A stretch of 64,000 nucleotides of DNA from Ignavibacteriota bacterium. Its GTDB lineage: Bacteria; Bacteroidota; Ignavibacteria; UBA10030; SZUA-254. The translations under genes and the position numbers were made by a program. This document shows positions 9,418 through 59,781 of the stretch, in pieces. Position 1 is the stretch's first letter, and the number at the start of each line of letters is the position of its first letter. The stretch is from positions 87,308 through 151,307 of the forward strand of contig CAVSHI010000001.1 of assembly GCA_963727845.1 (NCBI GenBank). The letters are read 5' to 3'. Below the pieces are notes generated by a model. It was given only the letters and a program-made list of their open reading frames with translations, did not search any database and was not told the DNA's origin.

Positions 9418-9548
9418 AGAATGGAGTAGGTTCCAACTGAGATACTGGTCGATTTGACATTCTGTGCATGAATGAGTACCTTTTCAATCGAGTGTGTCTT
9501 TTCAAGACATAGAGAATTTAATCCCAACCGCAGTTTCGAAGAAATGCC

Positions 9549-9944
9549 ATGGGTCTAAAACAACTTCTGTTTATTATTCTCGCGATCGTCCTGATCGGAC
9601 TTGCTATTACTCTAGGGATACAGCATTTCAATTATCAGCAAGCGCTCTCCAACAAAGATGGGATAGGTGCGAGCCTTGCCAACATTGCCGTCAATGCCTA
9701 CGAGTTTAAATCTCGCCCGGTCTCTATGAACGGAGGAGGCAACGTGTACGACAATTCGATGGGAGGCAAAAGCTATAGTATACCGAACGAGATGGCGGCC
9801 GATGGTTACGGGAAATACAGTCTGGTATCAGTAAGTCCGTCCTCGTGCACGATCAAGGGAATTTCAGTTATGGAAACAGCGTGGGCGGCGACGTGCACGG
9901 TCGATGAGAACGGCAAGACGTCATTTTCCTTTTCCGGGTGGTAG
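9549..9944 (+). CDS. Small pilin-like protein with N-terminal hydrophobic helix
   Basis: MGLKQLLFIILAIVLIGLAITLGI...RPVSMNGGGN resembles FCB-group MGQQQLL-type pilin-like proteins (recognised from memory). Confidence 0.6.
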   Translation: MGLKQLLFIILAIVLIGLAITLGIQHFNYQQALSNKDGIGASLANIAVNAYEFKSRPVSMNGGGNVYDNSMGGKSYSIPNEMAADGYGKYSLVSVSPSSCTIKGISVMETAWAATCTVDENGKTSFSFSGW

Positions 9945-10005
9945 GATCTAAGAGATCCGGAGAATGGGAGACCCGGGGAGGGAGTGTCTTCCAAAAAGAA
10001 CTTGG

Positions 10006-10128
10006 ATGCTGTCCAAGAGTTTCAGCGTCATGCTCGGTTCAGATCCTGACCAAGAGTGAGCGCCTTTGGCGCCATCCTGCTCCGCGGGACATGTCAGGGT
10101 GACGGGTTGTCTTACTTCTTGGACCACC
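10006..10128. ncRNA. Candidate rod-shaped structured RNA (unassigned)
   Basis: Nested stems GTCCAAGAG/TTCTTGGAC, ATCCTGAC/GTCAGGGT and GCGCC/GGCGC; no convincing CDS. Confidence 0.3.
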
Positions 10129-10137
10129 TTAAAAAAC

Positions 10138-10166
10138 AAATCCCAAACTCGGTGAGTTTGGGATTT
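10138..10166. terminator. Bidirectional intrinsic terminator
   Basis: Perfect 13-bp stem AAATCCCAAACTC-GGT-GAGTTTGGGATTT with an A-run on the left and a pyrimidine run on the right. Confidence 0.75.
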
Positions 10167-10218
10167 CTTCTTATTGTTACGGATAAGAAGTCGGGGGCTT
10201 GAAGCAAGCCTCTGAAAG

Positions 10219-10247
10219 AATATAGTGCGCACCGGATCGAATGTCAA
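10219..10247 (-). promoter_or_regulatory. Sigma-70-type promoter on the minus strand
   Basis: TTGACA-N17-TATATT read on the minus strand. Confidence 0.7.
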
Positions 10248-10474
10248 GTCTGCCCGGGAGGAGATTCTGTGATTTATATCAACGCAGGTACCCTGAACGA
10301 GGTGGCAGAAGGTTCACAGCCAGTTATCTACGCGATAAAGAGTTTTATGTCCGAATTACCGCCTTTCACCCACGCCAATCCCTCCATGAACACTGTTTCT
10401 GATGTGAGAGCAAGAACTTCCATTTGAACCACGCAGGAGATATCATCAGCTCGCTCATCGCGTTTCCCAATCAC

Positions 10475-10503
10475 TTGACTTTCCGCATTCGTTCCCGTAA
10501 ATT
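10475..10503 (+). promoter_or_regulatory. Sigma-70-type promoter, copy 1
   Basis: TTGACT-N17-TAAATT; identical hexamers and spacing at 14069. Confidence 0.7.
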
Positions 10504-10509
10504 ATTCGA

Positions 10510-10633
10510 GCAATCATAACGGTCGGAATTGTGGACCGGTAGGAAATTCCCAAAGTTCACTGATCCAGACCTGAGAACGTTTCCTACTGATTGTCTCATT
10601 TCTCAAACGCTCCCATCTCTTCTTCAGCGAACA
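10510..10633 (+). ncRNA. Candidate structured 5' leader, copy 1
   Basis: Homologous to 14104-14229. Stems CGGTC/GACCG, CGGTAGGAAA/TTTCCTACTG and GTTCACTGA/TCAGCGAAC. Confidence 0.45.
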
Positions 10634-10811
10634 GCTTCGCTCCCGGCCAACCCGCGGTGTAACCTTCCCAAGGTTCGGGTGGAAATGACACAGAGGTAAC
10701 CTTCGGAAGGTTCCTTGCGACGAACCGGCTGGAAGTAGGTGTTCGAAAACGATCTTGGAAAGTTCCGCAACTCTAACTCACAAAATCACTCACTTTCCTC
10801 ATGGAGGATGT

Positions 10812-13550
10812 ATGAGATATAAACTTTTGCTACAAACCTTGGCGGTTGGTTTGCTGGTGACGGCGCTGTATGTAACTCCCGCGCTCACCCAGTGGTCTAC
10901 CAACCCAAACTTCAATAACGCCATCTGCACGGCGACAAACGATCAACGGAATCCCACAATCGTTTCAGACGGCTCGGGCGGCGCCATCATTACATGGCAA
11001 GATGGGCGCGGCTCCGACAATGACATCTATGCTCAGCGCGTGAATGCTTCGGGAGCTGTGCAGTGGACGGCTAACGGTGTTGCCATCTGCACGGCGACAG
11101 GCGATCAAACGTATCCCATTATCGTTTCAGACGGCTCGGGCGGCGCCATCATTGCATGGCAAGACCATCGCGGCAGCAACATGGACATCTATGCCCAGCG
11201 GGTGAGCGCTACCGGCGCTGTGCTGTGGACGCCGGCCAACGGTGTTGCCATCTGCACGGCGACAGGCGATCAAACGAATCCCACCATCATTTCGGATGGC
11301 TCGGGCGGCGCTATCATTACTTGGCAGGACGGGCGAAACGGAAACGGCAACCCTGACATCTATGCTCAACGCGTAAATGCATCCGGCACAGTCGAGTGGA
11401 CGGCCAACGGTGTTGCCATCTGCACGGCGACGGGCAATAAAGAGTATCCCACTATCGTATCGGACGGCTCGGGCGGCGCCATCATTACATGGCAGGACGG
11501 GCGAAACGGCAACTCTGACATCTATGCTCAGCACGTGGATGCTTCCGGCACTCCGCAGTGGACGGACGGTCTCGCCATCTGCACGGCGACAGGCGATCAA
11601 ACGTATCCTACAATCGTTTCAGACGGCTCGGGTGGCGCCATCATTACTTGGCAAGACCTTCGCGACGGCGGCGACTTTTACATCTATGCTCAACGTGTGA
11701 ACGCTTCGGGCATGACCCTATGGGCGGACAACGGTGATTCCATCTGCACTACGACACTCAATCAAGAGGTGGCTCCCACTATTGGTCTCACTATCGTTTC
11801 AGACGGGTTCGGCGGCGCCATCATTATATGGCTCGACATCCGCAGCGACAACTGGGACATCTATGCTCAACGGGTCGATGCTTGGGGCAATATGCAATGG
11901 ATGGCCGGTGGTGCCGCCATCTGCACGGCGGCAGGCGGGCCGGCGTTCCCCACCATCGTCTCAGACGGCTCGGGCGGCGGCATCATTACATGGAACGACT
12001 TCCGCAACGGCGACTCCCACATCTATGCCCAGCGCTTGAATGCTTCCGGCGTAGTGCAGTGGACAACAAACGGTGCCGCCATGTGCACGGCGACAGGCGG
12101 TCAAGATAATCCGGCCATCGCTTCAGACGGCTTGGGCGGAGCCATCATTACATGGGGGGACTGGCGAAACGGCAACGACAATGACATCTACGCTCAAAAG
12201 GTAGATGCCTACGGCTACTTAGGAAACGTAGCGCCGCAGATAGCAAAAGTGAAGGATGTTGTCAATGACCAAGGCGGGAAAGTAACCGTTTCATGGAGTC
12301 CGTCATACCTTGACGTTTATCCAAAGACGACCATCAAATCGTACTATCTCTTCCGGGGCGTCAGTCAATCTATGGCGATGAAGAACATCAAAGCTCCGGG
12401 AGACTTCTTAAAGGAGATTTCAAGCGGAAAAGACCCCGGAAGCCTACTGCTAAAAACGCCCCGCTCTGCTCAGGGCGTAGATTCATACTACTGGGAATAC
12501 ATTGACAGCGTGCGAGCGCTCCGGCTGTCCGGATATTCCTACACAATGCCCACAGTTTCCGATTCCGGTCCGCAGGGCACGGCAATGTGTTATGCAATGC
12601 TGATGGCGCGAACGAGTGACGAGCTGACGTACTGGTTCTCAACCGCCGACAGCGGGTACTCGATTGACAACCTGCCCCCGATTTCTCCCCAGAACCCGGC
12701 GCTCCTTCCGTTGGTGAGTGGCTACACACAACTTCATTGGAACCCCGATAAGGTCGATCCGGATGTTGGACATTTCAGCGTCTATCGCTCGACATCCAGC
12801 GGTTTCCCACTGAACGACGGCACGCGACTGCAAACCACGATCGATACAACGGTCATCGACTCTTCAGCTGAGGTCGGCCAGCAGTATTTCTACCGTATTA
12901 CCGCGGTAGATATTCACGGCAACGAAAGCCAGCCAACGGCCGAGCTTCATACGGCGGCGTTGTCGGTCCAGCTTGCATCGATGACTGCCACAACGCTGAC
13001 AACCGGCGTGCAATTGAATTGGACAACGGTGAGCGAAACCAACAGTCTGGGCTTCTATGTCGAGCGACGGCCACAAAACGCAGGAGCATACGCAACCGTG
13101 AGCGATCTCATCCCCGGTGCCGGGACGTCGTTGCAGCAACACCGCTACGAATGGACGGATACGAAGGTAACGGACGGGAATTACAGCTATCGGCTGAGAC
13201 TCGTCGATTTGAGCGGTACCAACACATACTCGAATGCCATCGCGGTCACGGTGAGCGGTGTGACGGGAGTCAACGGGTCGTTGCCGACGGAGTTCGCTCT
13301 TCAGCAAAACTACCCTAATCCGTTCAATCCGACAACGGTTATCAGTTATCAGTTGCCGGTTGCCAGCTACGTCACGCTAAAGGTGTACGACATGCTCGGA
13401 CAGGAAGTGGAAACGCTCGTGAATGGAATCCTGGACGCAGGTTACAAATCCGTGCAGTTCAGCGCGACGAATTTTCCGAGCGGCATTTACACCTATAGAT
13501 TGACGGCGGGAACGTACGTCGAAGTGAAAAAGATGCTGATGCTAAAATGA
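10812..13550 (+). CDS. T9SS cargo protein: signal peptide, 8 x ~54-aa repeats (probable beta-propeller), FN3/Ig-like domains, C-terminal sorting domain
   Basis: GGAGG RBS before ATG 10812; eight IVSDGSGGAIITWxDxR...DIYAQRV repeats; ends FALQQNYPNPFNPTT...KKMLMLK. Confidence 0.88.
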   Translation: MRYKLLLQTLAVGLLVTALYVTPALTQWSTNPNFNNAICTATNDQRNPTIVSDGSGGAIITWQDGRGSDNDIYAQRVNASGAVQWTANGVAICTATGDQTYPIIVSDGSGGAIIAWQDHRGSNMDIYAQRVSATGAVLWTPANGVAICTATGDQTNPTIISDGSGGAIITWQDGRNGNGNPDIYAQRVNASGTVEWTANGVAICTATGNKEYPTIVSDGSGGAIITWQDGRNGNSDIYAQHVDASGTPQWTDGLAICTATGDQTYPTIVSDGSGGAIITWQDLRDGGDFYIYAQRVNASGMTLWADNGDSICTTTLNQEVAPTIGLTIVSDGFGGAIIIWLDIRSDNWDIYAQRVDAWGNMQWMAGGAAICTAAGGPAFPTIVSDGSGGGIITWNDFRNGDSHIYAQRLNASGVVQWTTNGAAMCTATGGQDNPAIASDGLGGAIITWGDWRNGNDNDIYAQKVDAYGYLGNVAPQIAKVKDVVNDQGGKVTVSWSPSYLDVYPKTTIKSYYLFRGVSQSMAMKNIKAPGDFLKEISSGKDPGSLLLKTPRSAQGVDSYYWEYIDSVRALRLSGYSYTMPTVSDSGPQGTAMCYAMLMARTSDELTYWFSTADSGYSIDNLPPISPQNPALLPLVSGYTQLHWNPDKVDPDVGHFSVYRSTSSGFPLNDGTRLQTTIDTTVIDSSAEVGQQYFYRITAVDIHGNESQPTAELHTAALSVQLASMTATTLTTGVQLNWTTVSETNSLGFYVERRPQNAGAYATVSDLIPGAGTSLQQHRYEWTDTKVTDGNYSYRLRLVDLSGTNTYSNAIAVTVSGVTGVNGSLPTEFALQQNYPNPFNPTTVISYQLPVASYVTLKVYDMLGQEVETLVNGILDAGYKSVQFSATNFPSGIYTYRLTAGTYVEVKKMLMLK

Positions 13551-13619
13551 CGGAGTCATTTTAGCAGAAGTCCCGCATTCTTTTGCGGGATTGATAGAAA
13601 CGCGGAGAAGTCACTTGAG

Positions 13620-13657
13620 CAGAAATCCCGTCTCGATAGCGCGGGACGGGATTTCTG
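13620..13657. terminator. Hairpin downstream of the T9SS gene (terminator or REP-like)
   Basis: CAGAAATCCCGTC / GACGGGATTTCTG, a perfect 13-bp stem. Confidence 0.5.
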
Positions 13658-13818
13658 TTGTTAGTTCCGTCTCTCAACCCGTCTTGCCGATACGTTTTTG
13701 ATCGGCATCTGAACTTAGGGAATGAGGAGCCCCGCCCAGATCCTGACCTAAAACGTGTCAGGACGACGAGTGAATGGCCGGGAATGGTGGGACCATGACT
13801 TCGGGTATCATGAGATTG

Positions 13819-13873
13819 CCATGATGGGTACAATCGAGGTAATCATGTGAATGAAGCGAATCACGGTTCAGAC
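13819..13873. repeat. Partial (right-half) copy of the 86-bp element at 22268/22367
   Basis: CAATCGAGGTAATCATGTGAAT..AGCGAATC..GGTTCAGAC is shared with those copies. Confidence 0.75.
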
Positions 13874-14068
13874 GGTACAGCATTCGCCCAATTATCGGAC
13901 GGCCTGATCAGCACGGATGAATGTCCGATTCAGAGTGTTATATCCGGATTATCGAATTCTTCCCGCCCAAATCCTTCAAGAAACCTCTGTTTTGATGTAA
14001 GTGCGAAAACCTGCGTCTGACCCTTCCCCAAAAAAGGACACCAATTCGTTCATCGCACCCCAATTTCC

Positions 14069-14097
14069 TTGACTTTCTACATTACGACCCGTAAATT
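14069..14097 (+). promoter_or_regulatory. Sigma-70-type promoter, copy 2
   Basis: TTGACT-N17-TAAATT. Confidence 0.7.
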
Positions 14098-14103
14098 GGT
14101 GAA

Positions 14104-14229
14104 GGAATCATAGCGGTCGGAATTGTGGGCCGGTGGGGATTTTCCGGATGTTCACTGATTCAGACCTGAGAACGTTTCCTATTGGTTGTCTCCCTGCTTG
14201 AACGCTCCCATCTCTCTTCTCAGCGAACA
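14104..14229 (+). ncRNA. Candidate structured 5' leader, copy 2
   Basis: Homologous to 10510-10633; several substitutions in the first two stems create G-U pairs on the + strand. Confidence 0.45.
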
Positions 14230-14517
14230 AAATGGCATGCGCATGCACCGCCGGGCGGTAAGAACGGTGATTGTGCCCTCATTCCGCCGCGATTGTCGTT
14301 ATCATATCTCAAAGCTCTTTTCCACATAAGACACTCTTCCTCGCCTGTATGATCTTGAGGAAGAGAAAGGACCCATAGTACGCGGGGGTACGTCCGTGAT
14401 GTCCCGGCCGTACGTCCCGGCGTCGTCATAAGATAATTTCAGGTGACAGATAGTTCTATCAGTATCTGGACACCATCTCGTAGTGAATATCTGATTGAAC
14501 ATTTTTCAGGAAGGGGA

Positions 14518-17500
14518 ATGTTTCGTATGAACTACAAGACGAAGTGGTGGACGCTTTCGATACTCGCAAGCGCCCTCCTGGCCCTCCCCCTGACTGCCCG
14601 GGGACAAGTACCGCAATCAGCAACTCACCTCGATAAAGTATACTCGGTCGTTCTTCAAACAATCGAGAAAATGAAAAGCGATGGCGTGACGGCAGACAAT
14701 GCACCTTTGAAAAACGTCCGGCAGCGATACGGCAGCATTGTGAACCGATTCGACAACCGAGGAAGGATCGGACTTCTCCTCGATGTGAAAGCTGTTTCAC
14801 AGAATCTTATCGCCAGACTCCGGGCATTCGGGGGCGCAATCGACCTCTCGTTGCCCGAGTCAAAACTGATCTCGGTGTATGTGCCGATCGACAAGGTCGA
14901 AGATGTCGCCTTGCTGGACGAAGTGAAAATCGTTCGCCCGATGGTGGGGGGAAGCGTGAACACCGGATCAAAGACCACCGAGGGCGATAGCATTCACCAT
15001 GCAATCAATGTCCGGACCGATTTCAACATCCTCGGAGACAGCGTCAACGTCGGTGTCATATCCGACGGCTGCGTCTCATGGCCGGCATCGGAGGGCTCGG
15101 GCGATCTTCCCGCGGGGTTCGGGCCGCCAAACTATACCTTCGGCGGTGTGAGCAGGGAAGGAACGGGAAACGAGGGAACCGCAATGATGGAAATCGTTCA
15201 CGACCTTGCCCCGAACGCAACGTTGTTTTTCTACGGAGCGCTGTACGATACTGTCGGAAATCATCTCAGCAGCGCGGCGATGATCGATGCTATTTATCGA
15301 TTGGTCAGAGAGAAGCATTGCAGGATCATCGTGGACAACCTCACATGGTACGACCAGCCGATGTTCGAAGACTGCGATGATGCAACCGCCGGCTATGTCG
15401 CGGCCGCGGCCAAGTGGGCAATAGACACCGGCGTCGTGTATATTAGCTCGGCCGGCAACTTCGGGGGTGATGGCTCGTGGGGACATACACACTTCCAGCA
15501 AGTGTACGATGACGCGAACCCTCAAAACAACATTGCGAAACCCATTCCCCCACCCTTTTCTCAGATGAACAATACCCAGCCCCTGCCGATCATGCCTGGA
15601 GTATTGAATCCGCCTCCATACACAGACTTGCACTATTATAGTACAACTCCGATAGACGATCCGGGTCTGCAAGTGGTCGTACCGGGTCATGTTCCCGGCC
15701 ACGAAACCACAACTCTGACGGTCATCCTTGAATGGAACGATCCCTGGGGAGCATCGACGAGCGATTACGACCTGTACCTGTATAGTGGAGATTATATGCG
15801 TCAACTGGCCCGGAGTATCTCGCCCCAAAACGGCGGCCAGAACCCCATTGAAACAGTTACTTGGGAAAATTACGGCGCGGGGGATTCAACGCTGCAGATT
15901 GTGATCAACCTCGTGGAGTCTCCCCGGGTTCACTCGCCGAAACTGCTTGGTATGTATATCTTCGGAGTTAACTCTGTGGAGTACTACACTCCCGAGAACA
16001 GCATCTGGGGCCAGCCCGGCGTCCCATTAGTTATTACAACCGGTGCCGTTCCCTACGACAACATCAGCACCATCGAGGGATTCAGCTCTCACGGTAATTA
16101 CGATGTGTATTTTCCTTCGTACGTCAGCAGACCGAAGCCGGATGTCGTTGCAATTGACAATGGCGTGATTACGGGAGCCGGTGGGTTTCGGCAACTGGGA
16201 TCCTGCAACGCTCAACTGGCGATTCCTCGGTACATCTGCCGCAGCGCCGCAGGTTGCCGGCATGGCTGCGCTCTTGTTATTGAAGTTTCCAAAGCTGACG
16301 CCCGCACAGGTGCATGCCAAATTCGAGCGGACGGCAGTTGCCCTCGGCGATCAGACAATCTATGGCAGCGGTCGTACCGATATCGAGCGCGCCATGCTCG
16401 AAGTGGACACCTCCGCGAGAGCATCCGGGCCGTACACGATGGGCAGCGCTCTCAACGTCCCGGCGTTTTTCGGAACCGACAGCGGGTTTGCCGTCAGCAA
16501 CATCAAAGTCACCGGCGGCGCACACCAACCGATGCAGGTCTCAAGCGGCGTGACGGTAACGGCGGGTAGTCCGTACACAAGCGCCGGAGTGGTGGACCTC
16601 GGCTGCCCATCCGTCAAGAGATGGTATCAATTGACTCAAACAGGAGGAACGAACGGGCAATTCAATGCCCAGGTCACAGCTTATGTCGCTGAGAGTGAAC
16701 GGGCGGCCAGCGGTGTTGCGGCAAATAACCTGCGCCTCCTCCATTGGAACGGGTCGTACTTCGATGTCCTGCCGCAAGCGATGGCGCCCGCTCAGGTCGC
16801 AAATACGTGGAAAGTCTTTGCCACATTCAACAACGCGTCATTCTCGCCCTTCTTTGTCGGCTATCTCACGAGGGGAATTTACGTGACAACCCAGTCAAAC
16901 AACAGCGGGATGCATGATAGCACCGTTTCCGTGAGCTTTTCGGTCGGGAATGCAGGAAACGGCTGGGATACTGTCAGGTCATCTGTTTCCGATAAACTCG
17001 GCTGGACGATTGCCCCCGCCGACTCCGCGTTCTCCGCGGCAGGAAGTCAACATGCTACTGTCGATGTCAACGTCACGATTCCATCTGGCGCTGCGGTCGG
17101 TACAATTGATACCATTCGACTCGTCGCGGTGTCTGTTTCCGATCCGACCTACAGGGACTCGTCAATTGCGACGGTTGAAGTGACAAGTCGTCAGGCTACT
17201 GTCGTTGCTGGGTTGACGGACAGCTGGAACATAGTTTCGCTCCCGGTGACCGTCACCAACCCTTCGGTCATGGCGGTCTATCCGACTGCGAAGTCGAACG
17301 CTTTCGGATACGCTCACGGATATTCCATCAAGACAGCACTTCAGTACGGCGTCGGATACTGGCTGAAATTTCAGGGCGCGCAGAACGACAGCATCACCGG
17401 CACGGTTCGGACGAGGGATACGTTTGCTCTTTCCCCCGGGTGGAGTATAATTGGTTCGATCTCGTATCCGGTCGACATTGACAGTATTGTCCAACTGCCG

Positions 17501-18328
17501 GGAGGGATTGTCACACATTACTTCGGTTACAACGGCAGCTACTACCTCGCCGATACGATCAAGCCAGGATGCGGGTATTGGGTGAAGTCAAGCAGCGGTG
17601 GTCAACTCGTGCTGAAGAAATCCGGGTCAGTTGCTTTTCCCCGAAGCAAGTCTGAAAAAGATAAGGTTCTACAGAGCATCAACTCTGTGACGGTTTCCGA
17701 CGCAGGACGCGGAACGACCACACTCTACTTCGGCAAGATGGAAGCCGTCGGCTCGATGTTGCCTCAATGTGAATTGCCGCCCGTTCCGCCCGCATCCTTG
17801 TTTGATGCGCGTTTCGCTTCACAACGATTTGTGGAGGGATACACGGCCGGGTCGGCGCCTTCGAGACTGGAGATTGACGTACAATCCGAATCGTTCCCGC
17901 TCACGTTGAGCTGGAAATTAGCAGACAAAGATACGCGGTTCTGGTTGGTCGCTGGCGATCAGTCACGGCAACCGCTGACGGGCGCTGGCGGCACGGCCGT
18001 CATTCAGCGTCCCGTGAAGGAGTTGGCGATTGAGATTCAGTCTGGGCCCGAATTGCAGCCGCCGAAGGAGTTTGCTCTCGGGCAAAACTATCCCAACCCG
18101 TTCAATCCGACGACAACAGTGTCATTTGCCATAAGTCATTTGTCATTTGTGACACTCAGCGTATACGACGTATTGGGACGGCAGGTGGCAACTCTGGTGA
18201 ATGGAATGCAGGAACCGGGATACAAGACGATAACGTGGGATGCATCGAGCATGCCGAGCGGTCTGTATTTTTACAAACTGACTGCGGGAACATATACATC
18301 CGTCCGGAAGATGGTTTTGATAAAGTAA
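14518..18328 (+). pseudogene. S8/S53-like serine peptidase with T9SS sorting domain, split by a +1 frameshift at ~16186-16189 (~1269 aa if joined); may be a sequencing error or recoding
   Basis: Frame 1 has a signal peptide, GVISDG, EGTAMMEIVHDLAP, ISSAGN and KPDVVA. The +1 frame has FLGTSAAAPQVAG (catalytic Ser) and the QNYPNPFNPTT tail. Confidence 0.8.
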
Positions 18329-18402: not shown

Positions 18403-18525
18403 GTAGGTCCGGTCGTCATGTTTGTAGGTCCGGTCGCTGACCGGACACGGTGCCTCCGTTCGGGTCGGGAGTATGAACTCCCTCGCAGAGAGAAGGATAG
18501 CTGGGAGGGAGCTTCGCTCCCGACC
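18403..18525. repeat. GTAG-type REP/REPIN-like element, copy 1
   Basis: GTAG followed by hairpin TCCGGTC-GCT-GACCGGA, then a GGTCGGGAG...CTCCCGACC inverted pair; second copy at 22483. Confidence 0.7.
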
Positions 18526-19429: not shown

Positions 19430-19509
19430 CCTCATAGATCAAAAACGCAATGACATGGCTTTCTGACAACATCTAGCCACACTAACTTACTAACTTCATG
19501 GAGGGCTGT

Positions 19510-22245
19510 ATGAAATTCAATCTTCTGCTTCAAATTCCTGCTGTTGGCCTCCTGCTGACGCTGCTGTATGTAACTCCCGCGCTCGCCCAGTGGTCGACCA
19601 ACCCAAACACCAACAATGCCATCTGCACCGCGACAGGCAATCAACAGTCCCCTATCATCGTTTCAGACGGCTCGGGCGGCGCCATCATTACATGGTACGA
19701 CTATCGTAGCGGAAACTCGGACATCTACGCTCAACGCGTGAATGCTTCGGGCCTTGTGCAGTGGACCACCAACGGTGCTGCCATTTGCACGGTGCCAAGC
19801 GATCAATATACTCCCACCATTGTTTCAGACGGCTCGGGCGGCGCCATCATTACATGGACAGACTTTCGCCTTGGCAATGCTGACGTCTATGCCCAACGCG
19901 TGGATGCCTCAGGCGATCCACTGTGGTTTGGCGAGGGTGTTCCTATCTGCACGGAGACACATCAGCAACAAAATCTCAACATCGTCTCAGACGGCTCTCA
20001 CGGCGCCATTATAACATGGATGGACCCTCGCGGCAGCTACCCGCACATCTATGCCCAACGCGTCGATTCTTCGGGCGTTCCGCGGTGGACAACCAACGGT
20101 ATTGCCATCGACACGGCGACAGGGGGTCAATATTCTCCCATCATCGTTTCAGACGGCTCGGGCGGCGCCATCATTACGTGGAGCGACCTTCGCAGCGGCA
20201 ACTCTGACATCTATGCTCAGCGCGTGGATGCTTCCGGTGCTCCCCAGTGGATGACCGACGGTGTTCCCGTCTGCACGGAGGCACACAATCAACAGGATCT
20301 CACTATCGTTTCAGACGGCTCGGGCGGCGCCATCATTGCATGGGAAGACCAACGCAGCGGTAACTATGACATCTATGCCCAGGGCGTAAGTGCGTCCGGC
20401 ACCAGATTGTGGACGACCGACGGTGTTTCCATCTGCACGGCGTCAGGCGATCAAACGTATCCCACTCTCGTTTCAGACGGCTCGGGCGGCGCCATCATTA
20501 CATGGCAAGACCATCGCGGCAGTACCAATGACATCTATGCTCAGCGCATGAATGCTTCCGGCACTGTGCAGTGGACGAGCGACGGCGTTGCCATCGACAC
20601 GGCAACAGGCAATCAGCTAAATCCCATTATCGTTTCAGACGGCTCGGGCGGCGCCATCATTACATGGCAAGACCATCGCGGCAGTGACTACGATATCTAC
20701 GCCCAACGCGTGAATGCTTCCAGCGCTACGCAATGGACGGCGGGCGGTGTTCCCGTCTGCACGGCGGTACACGATCAATTGATTCCCACCATCGTTTCAG
20801 ACGGTTCGGGGGGCGCCATCATTACATGGCTAGACACTCGCAGCAGCGACTATGACATCTACGCTCAAAAGGTAGATGTCTACGGCTACTTGGGAAACAT
20901 GGCGCCGCAGATAGCCAAAGTGAAAGATGTTATCAATGACCAGGGCGGTAAAGTGACAGTTTCCTGGAGTCCATCATGCCTTGATGTTTATCCAAACACG
21001 ACCATCAAATCGTACTACATCTTCCGCGGCGTCAATGAAGTCATGGGGATGAAGAACATCAAAGCTCCGGGAGACTTCTTAAAGGAGATTTCAAGCGGAA
21101 AAGACCCCGGAAGCCTACTGCTAAAAACGCCCCGCTCTGCTCAGGGCGTAGATTCATACTACTGGGAATACATTGACAGCGTGCGAGCGCTCCGGTTGCC
21201 CGGATATTCCTACACAATGCCCACAGTTTCAGATTCCGGTCCACAAGGCACGGCAATGTGTTATGTAATGGTGATGGCGCGAACAAGTGACGAGCTGACG
21301 TACTGGTTCTCAACCGCCGACAGCGGCTACTCGGTTGACAACCTACCGCCGATTACCCCGCAGAACGCCGCGCTTCTCCCGATGGTGAACGGTTCCATCA
21401 ACATCCATTGGAATCCCGATAAGACCGACCCGGATGTCGGACATTTCAGCGTCTATCGCTCGACATCGAGCGGTTTCCCGCTGAACAACGGTACACGCCT
21501 GCAAACCACGGTCGACACGACCGTCACAGACTCTTCAGCCGAGGTCGGCCAGCAGTATTACTACCGGGTAACGGCGGTGGATATCCACGGCAACGAAAGC
21601 CAGCCCACGGCCGAGCTTCATACGGCGGCGCTGTCGGTCCAGCTTGCGTCGATGACTGCCACAACTCTCGCAACCGGGGTGCAAATAGAATGGACAACAG
21701 TGAGCGAAACCAACAGTCTGGGCTTCTACGTTGAACGCCGGGTACAAAACACCGGAGCTTATGCCACGGTGAGCAATTTGATCCCCGGTGCAGGAACAAC
21801 CTTGCAGCAACACCATTACCAATGGACGGATACGAAGGTAACGGACGGGAACTACAACTATCGGCTGAGACTCGTCGATCTGAGTGGTACCTGCACATAC
21901 TCGAACGCCATCGCGGTCACGGTGAGCGGGGTGACGGGAGTTAACGGGTCTTTGCCGACAGAGTTTGCCCTTGAGCAAAACTATCCTAATCCATTCAACC
22001 CGACAACGGTTATCAGTTATCAGTTGCCGGTTGCCAGTTACGTCACGCTAAAGGTGTACGACATGCTCGGGCAGGAAGTGGCAACACTCGTGAATGGAGC
22101 CCGAGATGCAGGTTACAAATCCGTGCAGTTCAGCGCGACGAATCTTCCGAGCGGTATTTACACCTACAGACTGACCGCCCGCCCAACAGACGGCGGGCAA
22201 GCGGGGACGTATGTGGAAGTGAAAAAAATGTTGCTCTTGAAGTGA
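19510..22245 (+). CDS. T9SS cargo protein, paralogue of 10812..13550 (8 repeats, FN3/Ig-like domains, sorting domain)
   Basis: GGAGGG RBS, eight SDGSGGAII repeats and an EQNYPNPFNPTT tail. Confidence 0.88.
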   Translation: MKFNLLLQIPAVGLLLTLLYVTPALAQWSTNPNTNNAICTATGNQQSPIIVSDGSGGAIITWYDYRSGNSDIYAQRVNASGLVQWTTNGAAICTVPSDQYTPTIVSDGSGGAIITWTDFRLGNADVYAQRVDASGDPLWFGEGVPICTETHQQQNLNIVSDGSHGAIITWMDPRGSYPHIYAQRVDSSGVPRWTTNGIAIDTATGGQYSPIIVSDGSGGAIITWSDLRSGNSDIYAQRVDASGAPQWMTDGVPVCTEAHNQQDLTIVSDGSGGAIIAWEDQRSGNYDIYAQGVSASGTRLWTTDGVSICTASGDQTYPTLVSDGSGGAIITWQDHRGSTNDIYAQRMNASGTVQWTSDGVAIDTATGNQLNPIIVSDGSGGAIITWQDHRGSDYDIYAQRVNASSATQWTAGGVPVCTAVHDQLIPTIVSDGSGGAIITWLDTRSSDYDIYAQKVDVYGYLGNMAPQIAKVKDVINDQGGKVTVSWSPSCLDVYPNTTIKSYYIFRGVNEVMGMKNIKAPGDFLKEISSGKDPGSLLLKTPRSAQGVDSYYWEYIDSVRALRLPGYSYTMPTVSDSGPQGTAMCYVMVMARTSDELTYWFSTADSGYSVDNLPPITPQNAALLPMVNGSINIHWNPDKTDPDVGHFSVYRSTSSGFPLNNGTRLQTTVDTTVTDSSAEVGQQYYYRVTAVDIHGNESQPTAELHTAALSVQLASMTATTLATGVQIEWTTVSETNSLGFYVERRVQNTGAYATVSNLIPGAGTTLQQHHYQWTDTKVTDGNYNYRLRLVDLSGTCTYSNAIAVTVSGVTGVNGSLPTEFALEQNYPNPFNPTTVISYQLPVASYVTLKVYDMLGQEVATLVNGARDAGYKSVQFSATNLPSGIYTYRLTARPTDGGQAGTYVEVKKMLLLK

Positions 22246-22267
22246 TACTCCCAGCTTCATCGTCAAA

Positions 22268-22452
22268 TCTGAACCGTGATTTATAGGATTAAAGGATTAC
22301 CATGATTAAATCAATCGAGGTAATCCTGTGAATCAAGCAAATCGTGGTTCAGACGGCAAAGAAAAATCTGAACCATGATTTATAGGATTGGAGGATTACC
22401 ATGATAAAATCAATCGAGGTAATCATGTGAATCGAGCGAATCGTGGTTCAGA
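22268..22452. repeat. Two tandem ~86-bp elements with inverted ends (22268-22353 and 22367-22452), MITE/REP-like
   Basis: TCTGAACC(G/A)TGATT...AATCGTGGTTCAGA termini; the two copies are near-identical. Confidence 0.8.
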
Positions 22453-22482
22453 CAGCGCTGGCGTTCCTGAAGCGCCTTGCCT

Positions 22483-22612
22483 GTAGATCCGGTCGCTGAC
22501 CGGACACGGAGCCACCGGTCGGGTCGGGAGCGAATTTATCCGCCGATCTTCATGGCGGAGCTCCCTCCCAGCGGGGTCTATGAAGCTGGGAGGGAGTTCC
22601 TACTCCCGACCC
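22483..22612. repeat. GTAG-type REP/REPIN-like element, copy 2
   Basis: GTAGATCCGGTCGCTGACCGGACACGG...GGGTCGGGAG...GCTGGGAGGGAG...CTCCCGACCC. Confidence 0.7.
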
Positions 22613-58890: not shown

Positions 58891-59781
58891 CTACTTGGTG
58901 TCGAGAATGACCGGCAAACCATCCTTTCCGCTTCCGACGATGACGACCTTCGCATTGGTGGACTCCGCGATCTTCATCGTCGCTTCAATTCCCTTCCATC
59001 GGAGGAGGTTATCGCTGATACTCTGCGCCACGATCTTCTGGAAATCGGAGATACCCTGAGCCTCAATGCGTTTCCTGCTGGCTTCCTGGCTCTCCTTGGT
59101 GAGAATGAATTGCATCCTCTGGCTTTCCTGCTCGGCGCGCAGTTTTTCCTCGATCGCCGCCGTCAGCCCGGAAGGAAGTCCGACCTTTCGTAGAGGAGTC
59201 GATTCGATGACAACACCGCGGGGCGCCACGATTTCGATCAGATCCTTCATGATCACCTGTGCAAGGACTTCGCGCTCGGAAGTGTAGAGTGCCTTTGCTT
59301 CGTACGAGGCCGTCACGCCACGGCTCACGGACCGGAATTGTGGCTCGAGGATGACCTCGACATACTCCTCCCCGACGGTTTTGTAAATCTGGGATGCACG
59401 CTCGGGGTCGAGGTGATATAACACGCTGATCTCCATCTCCACCGTCAATCCCTCCTTCGATGGGACATCCATGACCTCCTTGAGCTCTTGCGTTTTGATC
59501 GACATTTTTGTGACGACCGCAAGGGGATTCACACCGTTGATTCCCGCCTTCAGGGTCATTTCGGACACCGTTCCGAATACATCTATGACGCCAACGTGGC
59601 CGGCCGGTATGACTGTCAGACATTGAGACAGGGCTATGACGATGGCAAGCAGCGCGATCGCTCCGCTCACGGTCATCGCGCTCCGATACGTAACGTTATG
59701 CTGGCCGACGAACTTTTTCCGCGCCGCCCACCAGCTCATGGAGGCGGCGATTGCAACGAGCACAAAGAATATGAATATCAT
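58891..59781 (-). CDS. SPFH/prohibitin (band 7) family protein
   Basis: IPAGHVGV, SKEGL, AIEEKLRAEQE and IEAQGI. Confidence 0.9.
   Translation of the reverse strand: MIFIFFVLVAIAASMSWWAARKKFVGQHNVTYRSAMTVSGAIALLAIVIALSQCLTVIPAGHVGVIDVFGTVSEMTLKAGINGVNPLAVVTKMSIKTQELKEVMDVPSKEGLTVEMEISVLYHLDPERASQIYKTVGEEYVEVILEPQFRSVSRGVTASYEAKALYTSEREVLAQVIMKDLIEIVAPRGVVIESTPLRKVGLPSGLTAAIEEKLRAEQESQRMQFILTKESQEASRKRIEAQGISDFQKIVAQSISDNLLRWKGIEATMKIAESTNAKVVIVGSGKDGLPVILDTK

Follow-up and report, generated by a model that had tools for sequence, protein, structure and literature searches.

Riboswitches for c-di-GMP precede a wide range of genes whose products act outside the cell, adhesins and proteases among them, and one genome often has several copies. 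[quoted passage not shown] The element is also comparable to orphan riboswitch candidates and cis-regulatory leader motifs (Rfam 'Cis-reg; leader/riboswitch'; the Weinberg/Breaker collections), as it lies in a 5' UTR after a promoter. It shares with motifs of the Weinberg/Breaker type the covarying helices around invariant internal-loop nucleotides, the several copies per genome before related genes, and the mutually exclusive pairings. Nevertheless, the competitor strand is found upstream, at the very 5' end, and not in a downstream expression platform, which is an unusual design, and the element differs further in having no Rfam match, no intrinsic terminator and no ligand that could be guessed from the genes.

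Two groups of attenuators are related in logic. The leaders subject to Rho-dependent attenuation (Salmonella mgtA, E. coli ribB) are likewise long and untranslated and lack an intrinsic terminator, and one of their conformers exposes a C-rich, G-poor tract that the other hides; Rho is encoded in the genome studied here as well. They differ from our case, in which Rho dependence is purely what we infer and the tract is only ~46 nt long, and they are related to it neither by lineage nor by sequence. A 1:2 / 2:3 logic is followed by the classical attenuators of the trp, pyr/PyrR and T-box type, and in the same manner a segment of the present element (strand X plus GACCU) has conserved, exclusive partners both upstream and downstream; in contrast to these attenuators, it comes with no leader peptide, no terminator hairpin with a U-tract and no T-box match. 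Finally, Matus-Garcia et al. reportedly described, in 2012, putative mobile promoters, that is, promoter-leader duplications before unrelated genes. Within the genus studied here the situation is alike, one cassette being placed before propeller and protease genes, but two families of one order have kept this cassette while its helices underwent compensatory change.

To our knowledge, very little is known about the regulation of T9SS cargo genes except in a few Bacteroidia, and hardly anything about how the Ignavibacteria regulate their genes. The latter are abundant in peat, wetland and sediment, and their secreted hydrolases matter for carbon turnover. Here we analysed a stretch of 64,000 nucleotides from an Ignavibacteriota bacterium (hereafter the window), and propose that the element found in it is probably a cis-acting, switch-like leader RNA, which forms the promoter-proximal part of the 5' UTR and is restricted to one order of uncultured Ignavibacteria. 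It belongs to no catalogued Rfam family and would represent a new family of a known kind of RNA. The element would define a post-initiation regulon, in which one conserved RNA device is placed on a small, presumably highly expressed subset of cargo genes and on some envelope kinases. At ~120 nt it is a compact and testable object; two conformers are predicted for it, and three of its boxes are invariant.

Two copies of a promoter-leader cassette in the window

The first-pass annotation of the window described a promoter and leader shared by two genes, and alignment placed the two copies at 10475-10636 (copy A) and 14069-14232 (copy B), where they had been reported. Over 159 nt the two share 81% identity, far above chance, and a consensus scan recovered the same TTGACT-17-TAAATT promoter in both. 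The alignment of the two copies runs from the -35 box to TCAGCGAACA, beyond which similarity drops sharply. The promoters and the genes that follow them are listed below; all are on the + strand.

10475..10503, +, promoter of copy A: TTGACT (-35), 17-nt spacer, TAAATT (-10), from the consensus scan
10812..13550, +, gene after copy A: signal peptide, 54-aa repeats and Por_Secre_tail (PF18962, 33.4 bits); T9SS cargo
14069..14097, +, promoter of copy B: TTGACT-17-TAAATT, from the consensus scan
14518..18328, +, gene after copy B: S8 subtilase ending up in two frames in this assembly (break near 16.19-16.29 kb); carries Por_Secre_tail

Upstream of both promoters, a weaker similarity of ~65% extends over ~130 nt (10345-10474; 13940-14068). 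The boxes ACCTGCRTTTGACC and CAATCAACTCGTTTAT, which are common to several copies of the sister species, occur 20-60 nt before the -35 box. This similarity and these boxes may represent a shared upstream activator or UP region.

Domain and sequence comparisons agreed that the two downstream genes are unrelated, copy A preceding a propeller-type and copy B an S8-protease T9SS cargo gene. The two halves of the protease gene are overlapping frames (14443-16569 and 16181-18328) with the frame change near 16190-16290. An intact orthologue, a single ORF of 1267 aa on the metagenome contig L050, aligns to frame 2 and then to frame 3; the split is either an assembly error or the mark of a pseudogene. 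The propeller genes comprise ~8-15 tandem repeats of 162 nt (54 aa), which are 65-88% identical (10906-12227; 19548-20901) and for which we found no good Pfam model. A third propeller paralog in the window (19498-22245) carries no copy of the element. The substitutions between the copies that had been quoted as preserving base pairs (GACCG/GGCCG and AGGAAA/GGGGAT) are present, and the long-range complementarity of GTTCACTGA and TCAGCGAAC is found in both leaders (10555-10563 with 10624-10632; 14150-14158 with 14220-14228).

Distribution of the element

We identified four copies in the window's genome and eight in the sister species, which is the only other species of the genus. The 12 copies are 79-87% identical, and several of them extend ~60-130 bp upstream of the promoter; their borders are sharp, and the promoter hexamers and spacing are identical in all 12. 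The notion of 'two unrelated genes' holds for the pair in the window but understates the pattern in the genus, where ten of the 12 copies precede members of one family of propeller paralogs. The other two are orthologous copies before the protease gene, and this gene lies directly downstream of a leader-bearing propeller gene in both species. In the order as a whole, the genes served encode dozens of exported proteins that are unrelated to each other.

BLAST retrieved no copies outside the genus, and these were reached solely by covariance models and motif patterns. The model built from the twelve genus copies (R1) gave weak matches in three further genera of the family, in which the boxes UCCAGACCUGAGA and ACGCUCCCAUCUCU are kept. 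A pattern made from these boxes matched eight metagenome contigs, all of them true copies, and all 11 matches of a second genome pattern were true copies in Ignavibacteria/Bacteroidota MAGs. The MAGs with pattern matches came from peat, fen and sediment. Matches of the first genome pattern to contigs of Proteobacteria and Firmicutes were discarded as chance matches.

Within the order, a second model, made from 22 sequences (R2), found copies in 27 of 277 genomes. These represent 19 of 110 genera, almost all in two families, and the number of copies found in one genome reached six. Among 401 genomes (175 genera) of the class, true copies were seen solely in one order of the Ignavibacteria. The single R2 match outside this order (L158) possesses neither the 5' box nor the promoter and was regarded as spurious, and a weak match in genome G115 is doubtful. 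In genome G210 (L088), two copies (1501-1581 and 1790-1867) are arranged in tandem, 290 nt apart, with a promoter-like site before each and one gene downstream.

The first-pass annotation had compared the leader by eye with seven riboswitch consensus sequences and matched it to none. A cmscan of the window from 9500 to 15500 placed nothing on either copy at E values up to 10, using the 4227 models of Rfam 15, including those for TPP, glycine, FMN, cobalamin, SAM, c-di-GMP-I/II, ydaO/c-di-AMP, T-box and ribozymes. For the diverged copies (10 loci, E up to 1), the only hits were tRNAs and Acido-Lenti-1 RNA elsewhere in the loci. The latter correspond to two matches to RF01687 on the minus strand of L084 (947-991 and 552-596; genome G161, of the Ignavibacteria), one of them above the gathering score, which lie ~500-950 nt upstream of the switch-element copy. 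A full-text literature search found no description of a leader of this kind for T9SS cargo genes.

Anatomy of the element

Three near-invariant boxes characterize the element, namely AUAGGUCG at or next to the predicted 5' end of the RNA, CCAGACCUGAGAG and CUCCCAUCUCUCC. When the copies were lined up from their promoters, the 5' box, (C)AUAGGUCG(G)AAU.G.G, was found 8-16 nt after the -10 box and kept across the order. The parts follow one another as 5' box (AGGUC and strand U), a variable loop or small hairpin, strand X, the core 5' box (Y)CAGACCUGAGAG, the hairpin HP2, the core 3' box CUCCCAUCUCUCC and strand D. Their positions in copies A and B are given below, together with the evidence and with their predicted partners in the two states (A and B) considered in the following section.

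10516..10536, +, 5' box of copy A, AUAACGGUCGGAAUUGUGGAC: GGUC(GGA) would be the 5' arm of P0, and GUGGAC is strand U, the predicted partner of X in state B (RNAfold P0 and U:X; covariation)
10542..10550, +, small apical hairpin of copy A, GGAAAUUCC: predicted tip of the state-B hairpin, variable among lineages (RNAalifold pairs 39-41/45-47 with AU/GC/GU exchanges)
10555..10563, +, switch strand X of copy A, GUUCACUGA: predicted to pair with U in state B and with D in state A (cognate duplex test; double changes)
10564..10579, +, core 5' box of copy A, UCCAGACCUGAGAACG: GACCU would pair with the 5' box, and AGA, UG and GA with the 3' box in state A (near-invariant in 61 distinct copies)
10580..10607, +, inner helix and pyrimidine-rich terminal loop of copy A (HP2), predicted in both states: CGUUU/AAACG starts at 10578 (covarying pairs)
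10608..10622, +, core 3' box of copy A, CGCUCCCAUCUCUUC: CU-rich 'tail', predicted to pair in state A and to be left free in state B (near-invariant across the order)
10624..10632, +, strand D of copy A, UCAGCGAAC: 3' arm of the predicted closing helix P3 (covariation; cognate test)
10661-10675 and 10698-10712, +, second leader module of copy A: two AACCUUC-NNN-GAAGGUU hairpins (loops ccc/cgg)
14110..14131, +, 5' box of copy B, AUAGCGGUCGGAAUUGUGGGCC
14150..14174, +, strand X (14150-14158) and core 5' box (14159-14174) of copy B (R2 match at 14145-14233, 90.2 bits)
14203..14228, +, core 3' box (14203-14216) and strand D (14220-14228) of copy B

The small apical hairpin is replaced by a 6-bp hairpin in L055 and is missing in family f7, and the core 3' box contains CUCC, which is complementary to GGAG. 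Strands X and D occur in compensatory variants, such as GUUCACAAG/CUUGUGAGC in L055 and GUUCGC/GCGAGC in L056. The second leader module belongs to copies A, C and D, ahead of propeller paralogs only; copy B does not have it, and it lies outside the order-wide motif. Two stems of the first-pass annotation, the CGGTC/GACCG hairpin and the CGGTAGGAAA/TTTCCTACTG stem, are confined to this genus and found no counterpart in other lineages, so that they were dropped from the model. Pairing alone does not account for the invariance of the three boxes. As these boxes stay invariant while X, U and D covary freely, the pattern suggests that at least one of the boxes is read sequence-specifically, by a protein, a ligand or a ribosome-binding site.

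Two predicted, mutually exclusive folds

The element is predicted to have two mutually exclusive folds, both with covariation support, and strand X and GACCU are used by both. The first, state A, is modelled as one long hairpin, in which X would pair with D (the GTTCACTGA/TCAGCGAAC stem) and the 5' box would be single-stranded. The core boxes then pair imperfectly (AGA:UCU, UG:CA and GAG:CUC), interrupted by an A.C mismatch and by a 2x2 loop of pyrimidines. The long-range stem proposed earlier proved to be correct, and it is the helix best supported by covariation and by the cognate test. In alignment A6 (61 distinct copies), which like alignment A8 was fitted to the structures that it tests, double changes were seen at nine of the nine X:D pairs; one example pair is GC in 19 copies, AU in 17, CG in nine and UA in seven. 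In the rest of the hairpin, GAG:CUC covaries to GAA:UUC and AGG:CCU (pairs 28-100 and 29-99), and the inner-helix pairs 35-92, 36-91 and 37-87 covary as well (UA/CG/AU/GC). The covariation score of state A was 0.325 against 0.126 ± 0.008 in shuffles, with none of 500 shuffles reaching it and slid partners staying at or below 0.094, and double-change cells numbered 178 against 61 in shuffles; since the sequences are related to one another, these shuffle statistics overstate the significance. The cognate test, which is alignment-free, gave -9.95 kcal/mol for X with its own D and -6.99 ± 0.52 kcal/mol for non-cognate pairs (p ~2e-4).

The second fold, state B, is modelled as a 5'-terminal hairpin (HP1), in which (U)AGGUC of the 5' box would pair with GACCU(G) of the core box, so that the 3' box CUCCCAUCUCUCC and strand D would be single-stranded. 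Its stem is extended by an inner U:X helix, for example GUGRAC:GUUCAC, GCGGG:CCCGC or AUGCGG:CCGUAU, and the extension of P0 covaries by lineage (GGA:UCC, GACA:UGUC, UAUGC:GUAUG). A covariance model was made for this hairpin (R3), and unconstrained RNAfold of the sub-region returned HP1 in nearly all of 30 representatives. The covariation score was 0.223 against 0.152 ± 0.009 in shuffles (0 of 500; slid partners at most 0.092), a comparison in which significance is again overstated by the relatedness of the sequences. U:X passed the cognate test at p ~0.005, and U:D, the control, gave nothing (p 0.82); the support for U:X is weaker than that for X:D. The idea of alternative pairings in the first-pass annotation was right in spirit, yet the true competitor of the long-range stem is the 5' box, AUAGGUCGGAAUUGUGG, which had not been singled out.

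Covariation was uninformative within the genus (one compensatory pair of 30, RNAalifold) and became clear for both folds once copies from other genera were added. The most conserved pairs, AGGUC:GACCU, AGA:UCU and UG:CA, never vary, and are uninformative for or against pairing.

Folding of the two whole leaders of the window gave no extra stability over shuffled sequence (z -0.27 and +0.96), which we initially read as evidence against structure. This reading was dropped, as competing folds account for the z values: against dinucleotide shuffles, the HP1 region had a mean z of -2.19 and the region from X to D one of -1.96, but the whole element one of -0.25. Whole leaders are unremarkable in folding energy because their two halves compete. 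The folding energy of the whole leader, with z near 0, would dismiss this RNA, and the signal is visible in the separate halves. The constrained minimum energies of states A and B differ by -0.1 ± 3.9 kcal/mol in 56 sequences (taken as raw predicted values), and the gap is at most 3 kcal/mol in 33 of the 56.

These data bear on the reading that one of the two folds is used and no switching occurs, the leader being a constitutive mRNA-stabilising 5' stem-loop or the docking site of one RNA-binding protein. In its favour, covariation is strongest for X:D together with the core helix, and HP1 resembles protective 5' hairpins in starting only a few nucleotides from the predicted transcription start. 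The invariance of the three boxes also suggests that a protein recognises their sequence. On the other hand, complementarity is cognate-specific in both folds, with the shared strand X changing along with both partners; the halves are unusually stable alone and the whole element is not; and the two states are predicted to be near-isoenergetic in the 56 sequences. Besides, a simple stabiliser needs no three invariant boxes. We therefore consider a static structured leader unlikely.

Far less credible is an element acting at the level of DNA, that is, a promoter region with operator sites that was duplicated or gene-converted as a 'mobile promoter' and whose RNA is functionless. What speaks for it comes from the genus, where the 79-87% identity and the sharp borders include the promoter and, in several copies, ~60-130 bp upstream, and where the ten copies on paralogs were possibly duplicated along with the upstream regions of these genes. 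Across genera, however, pairing is kept while the helix sequence is replaced, unlike in DNA operators, and such compensatory change indicates selection on RNA pairing and not mere copying. Moreover, conservation is found past the -10 box, in a part that is transcribed along with the gene, and arms spaced by 30-60 nt with variable loops between them do not fit a protein-bound inverted repeat.

Genomic context and transcription

A sigma-70-like promoter site of the form TTGACN-17-TANNNT was found at a near-fixed distance upstream of 53 of the 62 copies across the order, where ~8% would be expected by chance. A same-strand ORF follows nearly every copy that is not truncated by a contig end, at 10 to ~490 nt from element to start codon. 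The orientation of the copies is accordingly not random, with a promoter behind and a same-strand gene ahead.

Outside the genus, 16 of 30 downstream proteins carry Por_Secre_tail, against ~4% of genes in the window's genome (binomial p 5e-15). The other domains of these 16 proteins are unrelated to each other, including beta-lactamase-like domains, M1 and S8 peptidases, an esterase, FG-GAP, BNR/sortilin, DUF3160 and metallo-beta-lactamase, and the rest of the 30 include a hybrid two-component sensor and a Ser/Thr kinase. The window's genome has ~148 ORFs with Por_Secre_tail, four of which bear the leader. The regulon thus appears to be a small subset of the T9SS cargo genes (4 of ~148 here) plus some envelope sensor kinases.

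For the window's own copies, a search turned up no RNA-seq run. At one copy of family f7, single metatranscriptome contigs from wetland/peat contain both the leader and the coding sequence, and no depth was found further upstream. The RNA contigs at L134 (160-580, 180-647 and 200-435) extend across the start codon at 337, with which extra short transcripts remain compatible, and in two runs the first contig position is 98-115, which is upstream of the start that we predict. At ~206-270 of L134 (runs X4 and X5), loose contig ends contain further versions of the element (AGATAGGTCGACGGGCGG and CCCGTGCCAGACCTGAGAAGG, for example), which shows that several copies from related organisms are expressed in the same wetland/peat samples.

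The context of promoter and orientation, together with the contigs that join leader to coding sequence, indicates that the element is part of the mRNA, and neither a random repeat nor a separate small RNA. An independent small RNA gene that is merely located upstream of other genes would have a strong promoter of its own, a conserved part of just ~120 nt and a long and variable spacer to the ORF (10-490 nt), all of which are seen here. Nevertheless, we regard such a gene as highly improbable: no terminator-like site follows the element, the element is co-oriented with the downstream gene, RNA contigs continue from it into the coding sequence, and no further promoter was noted between element and gene in the copies read. 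Attenuation by a leader peptide was rejected, as no frame survives the indels (1 and 7 nt) that distinguish the copies and ORFs start inside the element in some copies only. The absence of an Rfam match, the covariation and the non-random orientation, the three points on which the first-pass annotation had said that its inference might fail, support what it had proposed, a novel cis-regulatory leader RNA for genes of secreted proteins.

Possible outputs and effectors

In the mechanism that we propose for the switch-like leader, transcription is predicted to start a few bases before AUAGGUCG, and the first 100-125 nt of the RNA would adopt either state A or state B, which exclude each other and have HP2 in common. 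An effector, be it a protein, a small molecule, an RNA or temperature, would shift the balance between the two states, and the state of the fold would set expression of the gene. The most plausible outputs would depend on whether the C-rich, G-poor tail, or else the 5' end, is accessible or hidden, and three options can be considered.

First, state B would free a C-rich, G-poor tract of ~46 nt in a long untranslated leader, onto which Rho may load. The 3' half of the element has on average 39% C and 14% G (median C/G ratio 2.9), and a rho gene is present in the genome (an ORF with Rho_RNA_bind, 115.8 bits). A scan of the window from 9900 to 14600 for intrinsic terminators, i.e., a GC-rich hairpin and a U-tract, detected none on the + strand in 10504-10811 or 14098-14517. 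Second, CUCC of the freed tail may cover a GGAGG ribosome-binding site. The served genes have canonical GGAGG sites, and the tail pairs with them at -8.45 kcal/mol against -7.23 kcal/mol for a background taken from one genome (p 0.009), a statistical hint that makes masking of the Shine-Dalgarno sequence one option, weakly. Third, the mRNA may decay differently in the two states, as a 5'-terminal hairpin (B) and a single-stranded 5' end of 30-45 nt (A) would differ in 5'-end-dependent decay.

By our rough estimates, the effector may plausibly be a protein; temperature, kinetics or the lack of any effector is possible; a small molecule is conceivable with lower likelihood; and an RNA is improbable. 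Should the effector be a protein, it would point to an RNA-binding regulator dedicated to secretion; should it be a small molecule, the element would constitute a new class of riboswitch, unusual in that the competitor lies upstream. A search of the genome for RNA partners in trans to the tail or the 5' box yielded nothing beyond chance matches with two mismatches. A look-alike of the 5' box at 59330 of the window has no promoter near and was set aside as a chance match.

It is conceivable, if rather speculative, that the element is both aptamer and switch of a new riboswitch class. The long hairpin would bind a small signalling molecule, e.g., a nucleotide second messenger, displace the 5' competitor hairpin and thereby set transcription read-through or translation of a dedicated sub-regulon of the Ignavibacteria, made up of enzymes and adhesin-like proteins that leave by type IX secretion and of sensor kinases of the envelope. 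The binding surface might be the invariant internal loops AGA-CC-UG-A-GAG opposite CUC-C-CA-UC-UCU. The element does have a structured 5'-UTR domain with covarying helices, as a riboswitch class should, and the set of served genes (T9SS cargo and kinases) points to no metabolite.

Neighbouring features

Just upstream of copy A, the minus strand of 10138-10247 has a near-consensus promoter, TTGACA-17-TATATT (11/12), an ORF-free stretch, and a 13-bp stem followed by GTTTTTT. Judged from these signals, this region is a candidate for a small RNA. Palindromic, REP-like repeats, such as GTAGGTCCGGTCGCTGACCGGACAC, were noticed downstream of T9SS genes at 13784-13876, 18414-18471, 22265-22456 and 22473-22530. 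In copies C and D (leaders L002 and L003 on contig C3 of the same genome), repeats of this type also occur as insertions after the switch element and before the ORF.
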